DNA from: Hemiscyllium ocellatum
Lineage: Eukaryota
DNA: 64,000 bases
Direction: 5' to 3'
Assembly: GCF_020745735.1 (NCBI RefSeq)
Contig: NC_083413.1
Coordinates: 97,870,409 to 97,934,408 of the forward strand
Under the pieces are notes generated by a model. The model worked only from the letters and a program-made list of their open reading frames with translations, ran no database searches and had not been told where the DNA came from. Below, piece after piece: positions 53,875 to 64,000 of this stretch. The first letter of the stretch is position 1. The number at the start of each line of letters is the position of its first letter. Position numbers and translations under genes: made by a program.

Positions 53875-54590
53875 TGTGAAAGCTCAGCCACGTTACCTGG
53901 CTTTCTGTGAACTCCTGTCCAAGAACAGAGAACCACCACTTAATTAATACACTTCAACAGTACTGTTTTTATTCAAGACTATCAGTATATGAATATACTA
54001 ACAAGGCTTGGGAGAGAAAAGCCACTTAGACCACACTGGGTACTAAAGAGTGGATTCTCTCACCGTTGATAGGGAAAGTTGTTACATTTATACATAACTT
54101 CTCACGCAATACAGAGTCCAGTGTCATTAAGCTATCGCAAAGTATATTAATCAAAGTATACTTAATTGTAAGCTTACACATCAAAACATGCTCTAAATCT
54201 AACACACAGACACCAGCACCCATCTGGTTAAGATATTAACACTATCTTTAAAGTCAGACATTAACTCCCATTATTTTTCTAACTCTTCAAAGCAACAGTC
54301 AAATCTCAGAGATGCTCTTTAAATGTAAACATTCAAACCTCATTAATGTGTTACAGCTAGACCGTAAGGCACCAGTACTCCTCTGATGGCTGCCCTTTGA
54401 CCTAGTGCTGGTACTATGTCATTCTCAGATCTGTGGGATTGGACATGTTTACCCAGCCTGTGCAAGTTGCTGTATTAGCAATTTGTTCGCTCAGGATGCT
54501 GGGCAATATAGCCAATGTGCTTCAGCCATTTTAGTTAACATTCTAAGCTCCATTTTCTATATGGTCACTATATCTATTTCCAATTTATCA
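53875..54590 (-). repeat. ERV 3' LTR (716 bp)
   Basis: Minus strand starts TGATAAA and ends TTTCACA; TATAAA at 54092-54087; AATAAA at 53973-53968; 6 substitutions versus the other LTR over 497 bp. Confidence 0.95.
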
Positions 54591-54603
54591 TTCCTCCCTT
54601 TTT
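54591..54603 (-). promoter_or_regulatory. Polypurine tract
   Basis: AAAAAGGGAGGAA immediately before the LTR TG. Confidence 0.9.
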
Positions 54604-54621
54604 ATCATTTCATGATAACCT

Positions 54622-57003
54622 TCAGATATTAATACGTTGAAGTCGAGCAAACTCTTTTTCTGTTTCTACATCTAAATTGCCATCAGTCAAAAGTGTAGGT
54701 GTCAATCTTTCCTCCTGTGTCCATATCGGGCTTGTCTCCTTTTTACATCGGCGTCGTGCGGGACAAGTTTGACAACTTCTCTTAATAAGGGCCCAAGCGA
54801 TTCGAATACTAATACAAATGCCAAGAATGATGGCCAGAATGGAGAGAATGTCCAGCCCAATAGACTTTAGCCATCCCAACAGCTGACACAGTAGGTTCCA
54901 CCAGGCACAGGCCTCCTTTGAGTCTGTGTGGTCCCGATCATATGCTTTAGTGGCAACATCGTTAATTAGTGAAGTGTCATTATATACAGCCGAGCTCTCA
55001 TCCTCAATATAGGTACAACACACCGGGCCAATAACTGCACATGCTCCCCCTTGGCTTGCTAAGAGATAATCTAAAGCCATCCTATTCTGTAAGGTCATCA
55101 TTCGCAGGGCAGTCTGCTCGTGTTCCAAATGATCCAGGGCATCAGCAGTGGCCTTAGCTATTTCCTCAAGCTCGTGACTGAGATCACGAATCTGGTCCAG
55201 GGCTTGCATGACCCCATAATTGGGCAGAAGGGCGCCAAAGAATCTGCTCCAAAATGTCTGTTGGTGGAACAGATCTCTCCTGCCTCGAGCATGAGGTTTG
55301 TAATTTGAATTAAGATCATGCCACTTCTTCCATTCGCTGTTAACCTCTGGGGTTGAATTCAATAACCGGAATGCTGGGAGGTGATATATCAGCGCACAGG
55401 TGCCCTTAAAGTTAATAGGTAGGTATTCATAGGCTGTGTGATTGCATAACCAAAATGTCCCGTTAAGTGCAGGCGTAATACAGTGTTTAGCGTGGAAGAG
55501 GACAGCACCCATGCGGCTTGTAGGGGCGTCGGGACGAGTCTTTTCATTAACACAAAGGTCCCAATCGTCCTCCGGGAGGCCCCCAAAGGGGTCTGACCTG
55601 GTTTGATCATGAGATATTATTACCTGGCATCTACTGTCTTCTAAGTCTCCCATGGCATGTTTTCCTGTATCACTATGAAAGCACCATTTAAATTCTGGCA
55701 CCACCGCTACTACAAAACCTTTTGGTACCACTTGCCAGGTGTCATAGCAACGCCTGAGGTAACCATACTGGATCGGGTATTGGTCAGAAATGTCTCTATA
55801 GGGAATAATTTTTGGGGTTTGTTGGGTACGCCTGTAGGTAAGACTGCATAATTCATCCTGACCAGTAGGGGCCGCCATCATGAGGAATCCGGACCCTACC
55901 GAGTGTGGGCCTGGGACACATACTACTTTGGTATTCTTTCCTTCATCAGTCTGATTGTCAAGATGAGTTTTTACTGTTTCAAGGAAGCCAGTAAAGGTGT
56001 TGCCGGTAAGGCTCGTTGCTTCCGGTAAATTGCTTCTTTTCTTTCGGTGGGTCTTAAGAAAACGGTGCAGTGTGCGGACGAGATTTTTTAATTTTAAGTA
56101 ACTGGGAAAGTTGAACAAATAGTCTCTAGGGTCCGCTGCAGTATTATTCACAAAGGCATGGCAGCACGTGCGTGTATCATTTAAGTACGTATAGGTATCC
56201 TCGGATTTGGTGCCATTTCCTCGTAGGCATACATACATTACTTCCTGGCAGATGCCAGTGTTATGAATTGTTATATTACTGGGACATTCTGTCCTAGCAT
56301 CCAGAGTTGTAATATTATATCCAGGGCACCACTGTTGAAGTCCTGTTAGGTTTTGCAAATGCTGTACGCAATCCTGTGACCAGGCAATATTTTGGACAAC
56401 TATGCTGCTATAATTAGAAGTGGCCTTAGAGTAGTCAGGAAAACCGACCAAGGGACAAATTGTCTGGTTAAACCCACTGTTACCTGGGCCATGACGATCA
56501 CACGTGGCATTCACTCTGACCTGAACTATTCTTGTGGGGCCTGTGTTATTCAACATTTTGCTATTCTCCTGTTTCCATACCCACCAATCCCTGATGAGAT
56601 TGCAAGGGGTAGCTAGGGTCTGACTTGGTTCACTTATATTATTAGACTGGGTACCTATCACTCTGGACAGTGATAAACTCATTAGGGGGGTGCTAATAGT
56701 CATATTGTCACTCATAGTACTCACGAGATCCCTCGGGACTATTACTGTACCATTGGGGCCATCAGAAGCAATACGTGGTGCCATACTCACAAAACCTTTA
56801 GTCATTTTAGTAGTAACATCTGTAGAGTGTGAAGTCATCACGGGGGTGCCTGTTTTTATCCACGTCTCCGCGGTGGCTGCACTAGAGTTGCTTGTAGGCC
56901 CTTGGAGAGTAGGGGGTGCACCGCTGGTGGTGTTACTGGTCTGCATTGATGTCCCTGTCACTGTTAGGCAGAGGCCAAAGAGAAAGAGGGTAGGTTTCAT
57001 CAT
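54622..57003 (-). CDS. env: Retroviral envelope glycoprotein, open, 793 aa
   Basis: Signal peptide, Ser/Thr-rich region, RKKR (320-323), RGRR (573-576), fusion peptide, heptad, ISD LQNRMALDYLLA, CX6CC (655-663), TM helix and Cys-rich cytoplasmic tail. Confidence 0.96.
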   Translation of the reverse strand: MMKPTLFLFGLCLTVTGTSMQTSNTTSGAPPTLQGPTSNSSAATAETWIKTGTPVMTSHSTDVTTKMTKGFVSMAPRIASDGPNGTVIVPRDLVSTMSDNMTISTPLMSLSLSRVIGTQSNNISEPSQTLATPCNLIRDWWVWKQENSKMLNNTGPTRIVQVRVNATCDRHGPGNSGFNQTICPLVGFPDYSKATSNYSSIVVQNIAWSQDCVQHLQNLTGLQQWCPGYNITTLDARTECPSNITIHNTGICQEVMYVCLRGNGTKSEDTYTYLNDTRTCCHAFVNNTAADPRDYLFNFPSYLKLKNLVRTLHRFLKTHRKKRSNLPEATSLTGNTFTGFLETVKTHLDNQTDEGKNTKVVCVPGPHSVGSGFLMMAAPTGQDELCSLTYRRTQQTPKIIPYRDISDQYPIQYGYLRRCYDTWQVVPKGFVVAVVPEFKWCFHSDTGKHAMGDLEDSRCQVIISHDQTRSDPFGGLPEDDWDLCVNEKTRPDAPTSRMGAVLFHAKHCITPALNGTFWLCNHTAYEYLPINFKGTCALIYHLPAFRLLNSTPEVNSEWKKWHDLNSNYKPHARGRRDLFHQQTFWSRFFGALLPNYGVMQALDQIRDLSHELEEIAKATADALDHLEHEQTALRMMTLQNRMALDYLLASQGGACAVIGPVCCTYIEDESSAVYNDTSLINDVATKAYDRDHTDSKEACAWWNLLCQLLGWLKSIGLDILSILAIILGICISIRIAWALIKRSCQTCPARRRCKKETSPIWTQEERLTPTLLTDGNLDVETEKEFARLQRINI

Positions 57004-57038
57004 TTCACTTTTCTTCAGTCTTCCTTCCTTAGTGGCAC

Positions 57039-57062
57039 CTATGTCAAAGGAAGAGAAAATAC
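57039..57062 (-). promoter_or_regulatory. env splice acceptor
   Basis: Minus strand TATTTTCTCTTCCTTTGACATAG|GTGCC, between the pol stop and the env ATG (35 nt downstream). Confidence 0.75.
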
Positions 57063-57087
57063 ATACAGCAGTAGCTGCCCCTTATTC

Positions 57088-60000
57088 TCATTCCTCCCCA
57101 ATAAGCTTGCAATGGTGTAGGCTGATCCAGGCTTTACGACCCTCAACCTTAACAGCAGTAGGGGTGGTAAGGAGGACTTGGAAAGGGCCCTCCCACCGGG
57201 GTTCCAGGCCGTGCTTTCTGGCAAAGTTTTTGATCAATACAAAGGTGCCAGGTCGGATATTTGGGGGCAACGGCAAATCCGACCGCAAAGGCCTGGCAGC
57301 TTTAACCATCGCATGGTTCATGCGTAAGGCATCAGTTAAGGATAAAACATAGAAGATCATCCCATCTGACATCTGATGTATGTCAACAGGAGAATCAGAG
57401 AAGTCAGAGCTAAAGGGAGTGCGGAGGGGCCGCCCATACAAAATCTCGGCAGGGGAGAGACGGTGGGCTCCTGCCGGGGACACCCGGAGTTGAAACAAGG
57501 CAATGGGCAAATTTTGGAGCCACGAGAGAACATTGTCAGCTGACAGTTTGGCCAATTTAGATTTCAAGGTCTGATTAGCCCGTTCCACCACTCCCGCGCT
57601 CTGAGGGTGGTAAGCACAGTGGAACTGCTGCTTGATATTAAGAACTTTACAAAGTTCTTGACTAACAAAGGCCACAAAATGAGAGCCGTTATCGGAACTG
57701 AGCGTCCGCGGCACACCAAATCTAGGAATAATCTCCTTGAGTAAAGTCTTAACAACAGTGTCAGCCTTGTTATCGGCTGCAGGATAAGCCTCAATCCATT
57801 TACTAAAAACATCAACAATAACTAAAACATATTTACACTTGGCCGTTCTGGGTAGCTCAATGAAGTCCATTTGCAACGTATCGAAGGGGCCTTCAGGCAG
57901 CGGGGTTCTACCCTGTTCACAGGGGACCCCCTTGCCGGGGTTATGCTGCATGCATGTCAAGCATTTTTTAGTTTGTGCTCTAGCCAATTGCAGAACACTG
58001 GGATGCCACCAAGATTCCCAGACTAAATCTGCAGTTTGTCTAGCCCCACAGTGTGTTAAGTGATGGACAACATCAACCACCCAGACGGCTAAAACATTAG
58101 TCATACACACCTGGCCTGCTGGGGTTTTCCAAAGACCGTCAACGTCCTTGAAACATCCCAGATCAGTCCATTCATGAAGTACATTGTCAGGGGCGTCCCC
58201 CTGTAAAGCAACAATATCAGCGGTGGAGGGAGGCTGCTTGTCAGGAACTGAGGCCCTAATAGATTTCCTCTGAACCATCATTAAGGAGCCAGGGAGCTCC
58301 GTAGCCTGTTTAGCAATTTCATCTGCCTGTTTATTTCCCATAGAAACCGGAACTGTTCCGGCAGAGTGCGCGGAACATTTAATAATGGCCAATTCGCGAG
58401 GACTTTGAATGGCCTGTAACAAATGAATGACTTCCTCCCTGTGTACGATAGGGGTCCCCGACGAGGTGAGGAAACCTCGATTTTCCCATAGTGTCCCAAA
58501 ATCATGGGCAACCCCGAAGGCATACCTAGAGTCAGTATAAATATTAGCTGTAACTCCGGAGGCTAGCTCACATGCCCTAGTTAATGCAATTAATTCAGCT
58601 TTCTGAGCGGATACCGCAGGTATGAGGCGACACTGTTCCACGATCCTGCCCTCCGCATCCACTATACCATATCCAGCCACCCTGTCTCCATTCTTGTTTA
58701 CAGAGGAGCTACCATCCACGAACAAAGTGACATCGGGATGTGGGAGGGGGCGGTCAGTCAAGTCAAGTCTGGGCCTAGTGTCTAGCATGATTTTGTGGGC
58801 GCATTCGTGAACGGGGACAGGACTCTCAGCAGGAATATCAGACATAAACGTTGCCGGGTTAATACTTGCGTAATATTTGAAGGTCAACAAGGGGTTCCCT
58901 AAAAGGAAGATTTCATAGCGAGACTGGCGGGCAGATGTCAGGTGTTGCGTCTGCATTTGGCCCAACATAGAAACTACTGCATGAGGACTAAAAACAGTGA
59001 CCGGTTGTTGGAGCGTTGTGTTTGCTGCAGCCAACACCATCAAATACGTAGCAGCCAGTTGTTGAATACAATGAGGCTGACCACTAATCACAGAATCCAA
59101 CTTAGTAGAAAAATATGCCACCGGCCTACGGGTACCTCCATGGTCCTGCGTCAAAACCGCGACCGCGCAGCCCGAGGTAGTGGCCACAAAAAGCTGAAAA
59201 GGCCTATCGTAGAGGGGTCTCCCTAAAGCAGGAGCATTGATTAGCGCCTGCTTCAACTGGTTAAATGTCTCAAGTGCAACTTCGGATAGAGTGAAGGGCT
59301 GTCGCTCAGTGGTAAAGGGAGTGAGAACCTTTACTAAGGGGGCAATGTTAGGAATCCATTGTCTGCAGAAGTTAACTAATCCCAAAAACCGTCTCATCTG
59401 CTTAGCCGTGGTAGGGGCCGGAGTATTGACAATCGGACCAATTCTATCCGGGGCCAACCTACGCTCATGCGCTGAAATTTCTACCCCCAGGAATTTAATT
59501 TTACGTTGGCCGATGACAACCTTGTCATAATTAGCTACATAACCTAACTCGGCCAGCTTGTTGAGGAGATGCTTAGTGTCCTTTTCATTCGACAGGGCAT
59601 CAGGGCTGGCAAGTAAAAGGTCATCCACGTATTGTACCAGGGTGGATCGACAAGGCAAATGGATCTGGTCTAATTGCCTTTGGAGGATCTGAGAAAATAT
59701 TGTGGGGGAATCACAGAATCCCTGTGGTAGTCTCGTCCATGTATATTGCTTGCCCAAAAAGGTAAAGGCAAACAAATGTTGGCTGTCAGGGGCTAGGGGA
59801 ATAGCAAAATAGGCATTTTGTAGGTCTATCAAGGAGAACACACAGGCCTCTGGAGGGATTGCCGCAAGTATGGTGGCAGGATTAGGGACGATAGGGTGCA
59901 AGGGCGCCACGATTTTGTTAATTTCATGGAGATCCTGAAGTAAGCGATACTCGCCAGGTTTACCTGGTTTAGCTACGGGAAGGATAGGGGTATTTGCTTG

Positions 60001-60483
60001 TGATTGACACTCGATCAGAACTCCCTGAGCCAGTAGGTGATCAATCAGGCCACGTAGAGGGGCCACAGCTTGACTCTTGATAGGATACTGCTTAACACTG
60101 GGGATCCGTGCTCCTGGCCTTAACATGACACTGACAGGGGCAACCCCCTTCGCCAACCCCACGCAGTACTTGTCGGTGGCCCAGACCGCAGGGTCAATCT
60201 CGACCTGGCTGTAACCACCTTCATGCTGCCGTAGCGTGGATAATACTGGTTCAGGATGGTCAAGGTAGACGATAGAAAGGCCGTCTCTTAAGTCCTGATA
60301 CCCCATTACATTCGGATCTGACAAGGCTACAGCCTGTGCTACCATGGGTCCTAAGTCCTTTGCTACATATCCCTTGTGAACTAAGACAGTTTGATGTGGG
60401 GCAATACCGGGCTCTTGGTCCCACAGCTCTGGTGGCACCCAAACGTACCAAGCCGTACCCTGTTTCCCATTAACTTTAGCCAA
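57088..60483 (-). CDS. pol: pol: C-terminal half of 2H-like domain, RT, RNase H, integrase (1131 open codons)
   Basis: LPQGFCDSP and YVDD (RT); FVDGSS, AELIA, YTDS (RNase H); HHCC, D-D-E (MDF, SDNG, VERAN) and WEGPF (IN). The frame is preceded by in-frame stops, so it has no normal start. Confidence 0.95.
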   Translation of the reverse strand: MAKVNGKQGTAWYVWVPPELWDQEPGIAPHQTVLVHKGYVAKDLGPMVAQAVALSDPNVMGYQDLRDGLSIVYLDHPEPVLSTLRQHEGGYSQVEIDPAVWATDKYCVGLAKGVAPVSVMLRPGARIPSVKQYPIKSQAVAPLRGLIDHLLAQGVLIECQSQANTPILPVAKPGKPGEYRLLQDLHEINKIVAPLHPIVPNPATILAAIPPEACVFSLIDLQNAYFAIPLAPDSQHLFAFTFLGKQYTWTRLPQGFCDSPTIFSQILQRQLDQIHLPCRSTLVQYVDDLLLASPDALSNEKDTKHLLNKLAELGYVANYDKVVIGQRKIKFLGVEISAHERRLAPDRIGPIVNTPAPTTAKQMRRFLGLVNFCRQWIPNIAPLVKVLTPFTTERQPFTLSEVALETFNQLKQALINAPALGRPLYDRPFQLFVATTSGCAVAVLTQDHGGTRRPVAYFSTKLDSVISGQPHCIQQLAATYLMVLAAANTTLQQPVTVFSPHAVVSMLGQMQTQHLTSARQSRYEIFLLGNPLLTFKYYASINPATFMSDIPAESPVPVHECAHKIMLDTRPRLDLTDRPLPHPDVTLFVDGSSSVNKNGDRVAGYGIVDAEGRIVEQCRLIPAVSAQKAELIALTRACELASGVTANIYTDSRYAFGVAHDFGTLWENRGFLTSSGTPIVHREEVIHLLQAIQSPRELAIIKCSAHSAGTVPVSMGNKQADEIAKQATELPGSLMMVQRKSIRASVPDKQPPSTADIVALQGDAPDNVLHEWTDLGCFKDVDGLWKTPAGQVCMTNVLAVWVVDVVHHLTHCGARQTADLVWESWWHPSVLQLARAQTKKCLTCMQHNPGKGVPCEQGRTPLPEGPFDTLQMDFIELPRTAKCKYVLVIVDVFSKWIEAYPAADNKADTVVKTLLKEIIPRFGVPRTLSSDNGSHFVAFVSQELCKVLNIKQQFHCAYHPQSAGVVERANQTLKSKLAKLSADNVLSWLQNLPIALFQLRVSPAGAHRLSPAEILYGRPLRTPFSSDFSDSPVDIHQMSDGMIFYVLSLTDALRMNHAMVKAARPLRSDLPLPPNIRPGTFVLIKNFARKHGLEPRWEGPFQVLLTTPTAVKVEGRKAWISLHHCKLIGEE

Positions 60484-61020
60484 TCATGTAAATATATACT
60501 GATTGCCTAGCAAGGATTCAAACTTTTCCTCCTTTTTCTAGTCAACTCCTGACTTATCGTAACAGAGCGTTACATGAGGAGGGTATCGAAAAGGGGTCTG
60601 GGTGTCACTGTCAGAGTCAGGGAAAAGTGCCCAAAAGCGTGCTGGAATGCGGACGGAGTACTGGCCTTTCTGTGTCAAGCGGATCTCTTCTGGGGTGCAC
60701 TTGATGATCACGCCAAGACCACCAAGAATATCTCGTCCTAGGATGTTGATACCAATGTGGGGGTTAATTACAAATTCATGCTCCCATTCGTCATTTTCCC
60801 AGCTAACTTTCAATGGTTTAGTAATTTGATAAGGCACGAACTTGCCCTCAAACCCCAATAAACGTTGAATCTTGTTACCACAAGGATAGTGGGTCCCTGC
60901 TAGTGAAGATGCGCATGCTCCTGTGTCAACCAAAAAGCGTTCAGGGGTACTTTCAATTAATAGGGTCACAATGGGCTCTGGAATGGCGTTGTGAGAAAAG
61001 ACAGGCAGCATCTCATCATA
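60484..61020 (-). pseudogene. pro: Aspartic protease plus N-terminal half of 2H-phosphoesterase-like domain, two in-frame stops
   Basis: FLVDTGA and ILGRD; then PPHVTL; TAG at 60540-60538 and TGA at 60486-60484, same frame as gag and pol. Confidence 0.9.
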
Positions 61021-62967
61021 TCACTGTTGTGGGGGCGGTGGGGGTGGTAGTATATTACTAAACGGATTTTGGCCGCCATAGCCACCTCTGGGGGTGCCTT
61101 GAGCACCCCGGCCCCTTCCTCCTCTGCTCCCTCGACCTCGTGGCTGTTCAGGGCAATCTTGTTTCCAATGGCTAGGATTTCCACAGTTAAAACAACCCTT
61201 CCCTTTAAAGTTATTCGTGGCCCGAAATGTCTGGGGCTGACTGGGATAACCCGAATTCCAGAGATTGGGAGTCCACGGCTGGCCACGCCAGTCAGGGGGA
61301 CCTAATGAGTAAGGACCACCCCTAGCTGGACCATTTGGGTGCTGCATCGCGTGAAACTCGCCCTTTTGGTTTTGCCAGCCTGGGACATAAAAATCCGGTT
61401 CCAGCTGATAGCCTCTATTGTCAGACTGCAGCTGGGGACCGGGTAATCTCCACAGCCCTTGCTGCTGGGTCTGCTGGGGAGGGGTGGGAGGTTGCCGCAA
61501 GGGGGCCATGGTATTTTGATCACTTTCCCGTACAACAAATTCAGATTTAATAGGTTTTTCGGCCTTAGGACCGTCACCCTCACCCCATAATGCTTTAATT
61601 GCCCTAGCTGTATCACCCTGTGAGGAATTGATCCAATTTAAGTTGTTAGTTTTCCATCTATCTTGTGTAGGTTTAGGCAAAGTATTCATCAAGAGACTAT
61701 TATACTGTTGTGAGACCGCCCCCGCTCCCAAAGGGAAAAGAGGGTCCCCAGAATATGTGCCATACGTTTCATTAAACCTCTGTAGGTATTCCTCAGCACC
61801 CTCCCCCTTTTTTGGTTTTAGATCAATGATTTTTGCGAAGTAAACCGGTTTTCTGAGGACCTGCCGCATTGCTTCTTTAATTTCCTGCTCCTGTTGTTGT
61901 TGGTTCGGGTGTTGTGCTGTAAAAGCAGTCCAACTGTTGGCACCAGGGGGCATATCTAATATTTCTAAAAATTTTGTCCACTTCAAGCCAATAAACACAA
62001 CCCTCAAAAAATTCCAGATATCTTCTCCCACTGCCCCGTAAGCCTGCCAAATGCTTTCAACTGATTCACACTATTTTTGTGGATCCTTATCTTTGTCAGG
62101 GAGATTCATAGTCAGTGCCAAAATTTCCTGCGGTTTCCATGGCGTAAAAATTTCTAGGGTAGGAGGGTGACGAACCGCAGCGACAGGAGGGACAGCATTC
62201 GGCTGGGCGGGGACTCTTACCCGTCCCGCTTGAGGGTTAGGAACAGTACGCATAGGGAACATGTGACCTGAGGGTTCCTCTATCTCTGAACTGTCATCGT
62301 CAGCCTCCTCTGTCCAAGGGTAGGGCAATTGCTGTTCGGGTTCACACTGTGGTGGAGGCCGATATCCTTTTTTACCTGTGCTTGGGGTAAAACTCCTTTC
62401 ACTACGTGCCTCCTGGGGTGCTGTACCCGATGGAGGGGGTTGGGGAGGAGATTCCACATTCGTAGAACTAATTCCCTTATCCTCCCATCCTGCACCCAGC
62501 CTCAGGTCTGACAATGCCGTCTCCACCGCTTGGTTGGCCAACCGTTTGTTCTTATTAATATTTTCATCAAAATTTGCACATGCAACCTTGAGCTCATGGA
62601 GGGTCAAAGGAAGCCCATCCTTAGTGACACTTAACCCCCTTTTTGTAGCATTATGTAACCAACTGTTGTAAACCTTCTGCTCGTGTTGTTGTTTAGCTTC
62701 CTCTTTCTTTCTAAAGCATGCATCTCTTAGTTTAGCCATAATTTTCTTACCCTTCTTTCCCCCTGTTCCCTCTTTCCATACTAACTCCGTAGCTCTTTTT
62801 ACAATCTCCAATTTCCACGTACCCCCTGCAGGCCATTCATCAGGTCCCAATTTTTCTGTTAGCCATCCTGACAATTTCCTGAGTGACTGTGCATCCTCAG
62901 GATCTTCTGCGCAGACTGTTACAATTAATGATCCCGAATCCTCACATTTATCCATAAACTGTCCCAT
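61021..62967 (-). pseudogene. gag: gag (648 codons) with one premature in-frame TAG at codon 299
   Basis: MGQ myristoylation start; MHR-like KKGEGAEEYLQRF; single CX2CX4HX4C knuckle CFNCGNPSHWKQDC; frame continues across the TAG at 62073-62071 (DPQK*CESVESIWQAYGAVGEDIW). Confidence 0.93.
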
Positions 62968-63202
62968 AATATTCCCTAAACTTTCCCTAACCTTTTGTGA
63001 GTGTTGCGTTTATTAGATCCTGCTCAAGGGACTTTAAACCCTCTCACACATACGTACCTCGGTGCTTTTATGAGGACTCTAACCCCATGGGACTTTAAAC
63101 CCGTACGTATCTAAACAACTACTTGTGAGCGGTGCTTTTATGAGATCCTGCTCAAGGGACTTTAAACCCACTCACACATACGTACGTATCTAACTATTCT
63201 TA

Positions 63203-63241
63203 CTTCTTACCGCGCTCCCAGCACCTTTTTATTCCTACCTT
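63203..63241 (-). promoter_or_regulatory. Candidate ERV splice donors in the leader
   Basis: AAG|GTAGGA (63238) and GCG|GTAAGA (63210). Confidence 0.5.
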
Positions 63242-63482
63242 CTATAGCACTCCCAGTGCTTTTGTGGTGGTCCCTTTAAAAAGCTGTTCACTGGTTCGTT
63301 CTCGATCCCGTCCGGTAGCAGCTCCTGCTGCGGTGAGTTGGATCCAGGTCCGCCCCTGACTTGAGGAGACACTAGTCGCGAGTCCCAAACGGTATACTCA
63401 CGTCGTAGTTGGGCCCATGTCCACCTTGCCACAGCAAGACCGTGTCCTGTTCAACCGTCACCAGGAGCCGCCTTCCGTTGGG

Positions 63483-63500
63483 ATCCCACCGCTGCCACCA
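63483..63500 (-). promoter_or_regulatory. Primer binding site, tRNA-Leu (AAG/TAG)
   Basis: TGGTGGCAGCGGTGGGAT is complementary to the 18 3'-terminal nt of vertebrate tRNA-Leu (...ATCCCACCGCTGCCACCA), 3 nt from the LTR end. Confidence 0.9.
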
Positions 63501-63503
63501 AAA

Positions 63504-64000
63504 TGTGAAAGCTCAGCCACGTTACCTGGCTTTCTGTGAACGCCTGTCCAAGAACAGAGAACCACCACTTAATTAATGCACTTCAACAGTACTGTTTTTA
63601 TTCAAGACTATCAGTATATGAATATACTAACAAGGCTTGGGAGAGAAAAGCCACTTAGACCACACTGGGTAATAAAGAGTGGATTCTCTCACCGTTGATA
63701 GGGAAAGTTGTAACATTTATACATAACTTCTCACGCAATACAGAGTCCCGTGTCATTAAGCTATCGCAAAGTATATTAATCAAAGTATACTTAATTGTAA
63801 GCTTACACATCAAAACATGCTCTAAATCTAACACACAGACACCAGCACCCATCTGGTTAAGATATTAACACTATCTTTAAAGTCAGACATTGACTCCCAT
63901 TATTTTTCTAACTCTTCAAAGCAACAGTCAAATCTCAGAGATGCTCTTTAAATGTAAACATTCAAACCTCATTAATGTGTTACAGCTAGACCGTAAGGCA
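63504..64000 (-). repeat. ERV 5' LTR (partial, 497 bp in window)
   Basis: Colinear with 53875-54371 without indels. Confidence 0.95.

Follow-up and report, generated by a model that had tools for sequence, protein, structure and literature searches.

A predicted CNPase-type 2H phosphoesterase domain in the Pol polyprotein of fish retroviruses, broken by two stops in a shark provirus

Organization of the provirus

The window, i.e., the whole 64,000-nucleotide stretch of Hemiscyllium ocellatum DNA that was analyzed, harbors a single provirus on the minus strand (53875-64000). Its arrangement of LTR, gag, pol, env, and LTR is read directly from the letters, as is a primer binding site at 63483..63500 (minus strand), which we take to resemble tRNA-Leu. 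The 3′ LTR (53875..54590, minus strand) is ~716 bp long, and the 5′ LTR (63504..64000, minus strand) extends ~220 bp beyond the window end. The two LTRs are ~99% identical, with 6 mismatches in 497 bp and 5 in an overlapping 628 bp, and the insertion is therefore young. A 63-bp direct repeat (62995-63057 and 63123-63185, 92%) lies in the leader, after the primer binding site and ahead of gag.

The gag gene (61021..62967, minus strand) encodes a visible CCHC zinc knuckle, carries a premature TAG at 62073-62071, and ends with a TGA at 61023-61021 in frame with pol; the shared frame suggests readthrough at the gag stop. The pol gene encodes a retroviral aspartyl protease at 60703..60978 (minus strand; Pfam RVP, E 9e-11), as well as a 1,131-aa open frame at 57088..60201 (minus strand) that shows YVDD and integrase-type motifs and covers reverse transcriptase (RT, beginning near 60200), RNase H, and integrase. 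The env gene (54622..57003, minus strand) lies in a stop-to-stop frame of 819 aa (54622-57081) with signal-like, furin-like, and transmembrane-like stretches. This env frame is open over all 819 codons, whereas gag and pol carry premature stops, one in the former and two in the latter.

Both pol stops fall within an insert between protease and RT. They are an in-frame TAG (60538..60540, minus strand) and an in-frame TGA (60484..60486, minus strand), each inside the 2H domain described below and between its two HxT motifs, and the broken gene was translated with X at these positions. The provirus copy in the window is dead, as the two stops cut the 2H domain and everything downstream of it.

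The provirus is repeated together with its flanks at a distance of 49 kb on its own contig (99.9-100% identity; L002, C17:97978295-97981759; L062, L063) and again on contig C107 (97-99% identity; L005, L064, L065). These repeats stem from a recent segmental duplication, from allelic copies, or from duplication in the assembly. Replication in trans, which copies sharing both stops could suggest, was considered and rejected: L002 and L005 share the flanks of the window copy (97-100%) and are therefore duplicates or alleles of one insertion.

The insert between protease and reverse transcriptase

The protease and RT are separated by an insert of ~148 residues. A sequence-only reading of the window had described ~145 extra codons at this place with two HxT motifs 60 residues apart, and both elements are confirmed. 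Motif 1, H-V-T-L (PPHVTL), lies at 60565..60576 (minus strand), its histidine encoded by CAT at 60576-60574; motif 2, H-Q-T-V (APHQTV), lies at 60385..60396 (minus strand), its histidine encoded by CAT at 60396-60394. The two are spaced by 60 residues in the pol frame. Such a pair is not attributable to chance because the whole 1,311-codon pol frame contains just three HxT/S-hydrophobic motifs, two of which are PPHVTL and APHQTV.

On the basis of structural alignment (model residues 15-162), the predicted CNPase-like 2H phosphoesterase domain, broken in this copy, spans 60217..60660 (minus strand). At its N-terminal end, the aligned domain (~60217-60660) is slightly wider than the range of 60215..60650 proposed earlier. 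Motif 2 is followed by a loop and a helix (A-K-D-L-G-P; 60322..60384, minus strand) that would be the equivalent of the CNPase-specific β5-α7 loop and helix α7.

Predicted fold and comparison with CNPase

The modelled sequence is a naturally unbroken sister copy, 97% identical, supplied with a 52-row alignment. The resulting model has a mean pLDDT of 88.3 and a pTM of 0.80. In the VIA comparison of this model with 48,161 representative chains, mouse CNPase is the closest match, with a Z of 14.3, an rmsd of 4.2, and 146 residues aligned. It is the only chain at Z ≥8, the next one reaching 6.8, and 13 of the 14 chains at Z ≥5 are 2H proteins. CNPase is followed by CPDases (Deinococcus 6.8, Arabidopsis 6.7), rotavirus VP3 (6.5-6.7), Acb1 (6.3), and LigT (6.2), with lower values for MHV ns2 (5.4), Usb1 (5.2), AKAP18 (5.1), and the penguinpox cGAMP PDE (4.9). 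A Foldseek search of the PDB gives E 7.6e-6 and 51 matches at E ≤0.001; the matches listed are CNPase or goldfish RICH, except for the last, 6u05, a ‘Fungal RNA Kinase’.

The resemblance extends to an element that distinguishes CNPase within the superfamily. Helix α7 and the β5-α7 loop are reported to be unique to CNPase among 2H enzymes, possibly setting stereospecificity (PMC4643303), and in the model a helix (residues 114-127) immediately follows motif 2. The segment after motif 2 aligns without gaps to the CNPase exon of the host genome itself (hhalign E 4.4e-4, at a probability of just 33%). The domain profile scores 4.8 bits on this exon, compared to ≤3.4 bits in 1,000 shuffles and ≤1.5 bits on pieces around matches to the AKAP7_NLS family.

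Sequence similarity to CNPase is faint. None of 23 domain members matches the Pfam CNPase model (PF05881), which in the host genome finds the host gene only. Other Pfam models give sub-threshold hints of Acb1, LigT, and 2-5 RNA ligase (best E of the members 0.005-0.017); for the window copy, Acb1 matches motif 1 along 23 residues with E 0.019, its 15 bits falling short of the cut-off of 27. Searches of the PDB by sequence and profile returned nothing relevant, and a single-sequence search of longer proteins yielded none among 146 candidates.

The domain shares with the catalytic domains of CNPase and RICH (2xmi, 1woj, 2i3e; PF05881) its predicted fold (TM 0.6-0.69), two HxT/S motifs, an aromatic residue at His1+5, the β5-α7 loop with its helix, and a glycine at His2+15. 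By spacing, the aromatic residue is a tyrosine (51 of 52 rows) that matches CNPase Phe235 in the numbering of PMC4643303. In contrast to CNPase, the domain comprises ~148 rather than ~210 residues, is 10-14% identical, lacks the N-terminal P-loop domain and the C-terminal membrane tail, and is flanked by protease and RT. Judged by spacing from the histidines, the position of CNPase Arg307 (His−2) is not kept, and that of Val321 (His+12) is mostly occupied by lysine or arginine. These differences may entail a base or RNA preference other than that of CNPase; the CNPase mutants R307Q and V321A remain active (PMC4643303).

Taken with the conserved histidines, the predicted fold places the insert in the 2H phosphoesterase superfamily, in line with the earlier assignment, and the confident model matches 2H proteins. 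Within the superfamily, the fold is predicted to be of the CNPase type, including the β5-α7 element, and the AKAP7, NS2, VP3, or Acb1 type put forward earlier for comparison does not hold (Z 4.9-6.7 vs 14.3 for CNPase). On the features tested, it qualifies neither as a complete vertebrate CNPase nor as an enzyme of the AKAP7 or Acb1 type.

Conservation, distribution, and selection

A search of the genome with the insert gave 140 matches among 150 scored, out of 434 candidates. All of the best 30 loci, three of which represent the window insertion or duplicates of it, retain both histidines; 28 retain both full HxT motifs, and 23 have a domain free of stops. The histidines are hence conserved in sister proviruses, as expected of the 2H assignment. 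Twenty divergent loci were chosen with 29-39% identity and a match without a stop; RT lies directly downstream in 19 of the 20 and protease upstream in 13. In several old divergent copies (L031-L041), one motif is missing or the frame is shifted, in keeping with the decay of such insertions.

Homologues are also widespread outside this genome. A profile search of proteins found 34, with both motifs 62-63 residues apart in 29; those with names are mostly Pol polyproteins of ray-finned fishes, and many teleost Pols carry the homologue between protease and RT. Cartilaginous fishes supply the closest named relatives: a search of representative proteins returned 19 matches, and among the 10 looked up, the named ones come from skates, a catshark, and a devil ray.

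The 52-row alignment includes members down to 20% identity from cartilaginous and bony fishes, and both full HxT/S motifs are present in 45 rows. The histidine of motif 1 is found in 49 rows and its threonine in 48, while the histidine and the Thr/Ser of motif 2 are invariant (52/52 each). After motif 2, alanine at +11 (49/52), leucine at +14 (52/52), and glycine at +15 (50/52) are likewise kept.

Pairwise dN/dS is 0.32 for the domain (95% 0.17-0.56), compared to 0.13 for RT and 0.16 for protease, values that come from two groups of 13 copies (27 of the 30 loci usable, one ungrouped) and are inflated by post-insertion decay, with copies that are not independent. The domain is under purifying selection, which is weaker than that on RT and protease.

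Proposed function and alternatives

A shared fold does not fix the substrate, and CNPase-like activity of the domain is a prediction of the model. By analogy with CNPase, the chemistry is likely the conversion of a 2′,3′-cyclic phosphate to a 2′-phosphate and a 3′-OH. That the conserved Pol domain, with its predicted CNPase fold, performs this hydrolysis on RNA ends is on balance the reading we favor. CNP reduces both 2′,3′>P ends and ligation by RTCB (PMC13247085), and mammalian CNP can stand in for the CPDase module of yeast Trl1 (cited in PMC13247085). RIG-I/MDA5, NLRP3, and TLR8 respond to RNAs that carry 2′,3′>P ends (bioRxiv 2021.06.16.448777). RNA ends are favored as the target because CNP removes such ends and they are innate ligands, and also because a domain in Pol accompanies the genome and the primer tRNA.

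The domain would be made within Gag-Pol and would in this way reach the particle and the newly infected cell. There, it may have been released by the viral protease or may stay attached to RT. Its role, the most speculative step, could be to clear viral or primer RNA of the cyclic-phosphate ends that result from cleavage by host endonucleases. Such clearing would remove a ligand for RTCB and innate sensors and would restore the 3′-OH. The broader proposal is tentative and perhaps doubtful: an entire clade of fish retroviruses, with hosts among sharks, rays, and bony fishes, would package in Pol a miniature CNPase that erases 2′,3′-cyclic-phosphate ends. If true, retroviral replication would include a step of RNA-end healing, by which nicked primer tRNA or genome RNA is rescued; alternatively, the erasure would be a form of immune evasion acting via cyclic-phosphate RNA and not via 2-5A or cGAMP.

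The same cyclic phosphodiesterase chemistry might instead act on free small molecules, either 2′,3′-cNMPs from RNA decay or ADP-ribose 1″,2″-cyclic phosphate, which we regard as unlikely. CNPase itself turns over 2′,3′-cNMP and cNADP in vitro (PMC4643303), fish ERVs are also reported to carry macro domains (PMC4977317), and the first structural matches after CNPase are the Deinococcus and Arabidopsis CPDases. However, Appr>p-type CPDases reach half the Z of CNPase, and Pol, as a low-copy packaged polyprotein, would suit RNA in the particle better than a cell-wide metabolite pool.

A quite unlikely alternative is that the domain degrades an immune messenger, either 2-5A, as do NS2, VP3, and AKAP7, or 2′3′-cGAMP, as do Acb1 and avian poxvirus PDEs. 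Viruses have repeatedly used the superfamily in this way (PMC10835031, PMC11410667), and the domain shares with MHV ns2, MERS NS4b, the VP3 C-terminal domain, AKAP7/18, Acb1, and the poxvirus PDE its superfamily, its catalytic motifs, and, with the viral enzymes, carriage by a virus. A functional OAS-RNase L pair exists in cartilaginous fish (PMC10400998), and the host genome has OAS genes, with 11 OAS1_C matches. A Pfam search of this genome for RNase L gave two matches, a result in which RNase L and IRE1 are not distinguishable. Acb1 is also the Pfam family with the weak match on motif 1, yet that match covers just 23 residues at 15 bits, well under the cut-off of 27.

Structure and distribution both speak against an immune-messenger substrate. 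The viral 2′,5′-phosphodiesterases, Acb1, and the poxvirus PDE trail far behind CNPase in Z, and the known enzymes are described as being without helix α7 (PMC4643303). Ray-finned fishes have lost OAS-RNase L (PMC10400998), yet the Pols of many of their retroviruses keep the domain, whose distribution does not track this pathway; the 2-5A reading is weakened as a result, an argument that does not apply to cGAMP. The predicted structure makes cyclic phosphates the more promising substrates and disfavors 2-5A, the obvious candidate. The sequence-only reading had offered an innate-immune antagonist or an RNA-processing enzyme; of the two, the CNPase-type fold and retention in ray-finned fishes favor RNA processing over antagonism of an immune messenger.

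In the host genome, OAS-like genes form a cluster of at least three units at C59:18.29-18.36 Mb (L053-L055), and one further locus lies on C2.

It is very unlikely that the domain is a captured CNPase fold that does not catalyze and instead binds RNA or works as a decoy directed at host CNP. Host CNP is antiviral, with reported blocks to the assembly of lentiviruses and the replication of HBV (PMC5434554, PMC7471995, PMC3832489), and two pocket residues have diverged from CNPase. In contrast, retention of both HxT/S motifs by 45 of the 52 rows, whose identity falls as low as 20%, is the pattern expected of selection on catalysis. The chance that the insert is a non-functional spacer with fortuitous motifs is negligible: the want of a significant Pfam or PDB sequence match and the two stops of the window copy would fit, but the confident 2H fold, the conserved motifs, and a dN/dS below 1 refute it.

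Relation to other fish retroviral domains

The usual complement of retroviral Pol is protease, RT, RNase H, and integrase, to which dUTPase is sometimes added. If fish retroviruses maintain a CNPase-like enzyme by selection, it would represent an extra Pol activity, in a domain that has been annotated for two decades. As a small, stand-alone version of the CNPase fold, it may also help with the question of CNPase’s own substrate.

The domain is not special to this ERV lineage. 2H domains have already been reported in fish retroviruses, including walleye dermal sarcoma virus (WDSV; Mazumder et al. 2002, cited in PMC9503650), and some epsilon-like ERVs of ray-finned fish are stated to encode CNPase (Basta et al. 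2009, cited in PMC4977317). In a viral structure search (BFVD), the top match is Q9WHI8 from walleye epidermal hyperplasia virus 1 (WEHV1; E 5.6e-9, 21% identity), followed by an unnamed 1,072-residue protein (Q2VF30) and WDSV A4GTG3 (E 4.5e-6); the matches are whole polyproteins, and the search does not give the position of the match within those of WDSV and WEHV. The link to WDSV/WEHV comes from this fold search and the citing paper because a protein search aimed at walleye and salmon virus Pols returned teleost ERVs only (11 matches).

On this basis, the domain is a member of the known fish retroviral Pol 2H group of the WDSV/WEHV type. Like the walleye virus and epsilon-like ERV domains, it is a 2H-type domain in a retroviral polyprotein, and its teleost homologues also lie between protease and RT. 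It differs from these relatives in its cartilaginous-fish host, in motif spacing (60 here vs 62-63), and in the H-Q-T of motif 2.

A search of the literature, largely open-access main texts, found no functional study of the retroviral 2H domain and no mention of the domain for cartilaginous fish, copies of which supplementary domain tables could already list. PMC10835031 and PMC11410667 make no mention of retroviruses, and no passage about the domain emerged from PMC3185748, PMC8672886, or the first part of PMC4422223. The domain itself is not new; what is added here is the subfamily assignment, the estimate of selection, and the copies from a cartilaginous fish.

Ranks 4-7 of the BFVD search are occupied by two unnamed ~154-residue proteins and by giant-virus proteins from Sylvanvirus and a Marseillevirus (an RNA ligase). 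There may therefore be more than one candidate donor of such CNPase-like domains.

A domain-only tree of 33 chosen rows reveals a second family of domain-bearing ERVs in the genome (L043, L048). These two loci group with a bamboo shark protein (P0003) inside the teleost group, away from the cartilaginous-fish group that contains the window copy. Their placement hints at exchange between fish classes, with modest support for the two groups (87/98).
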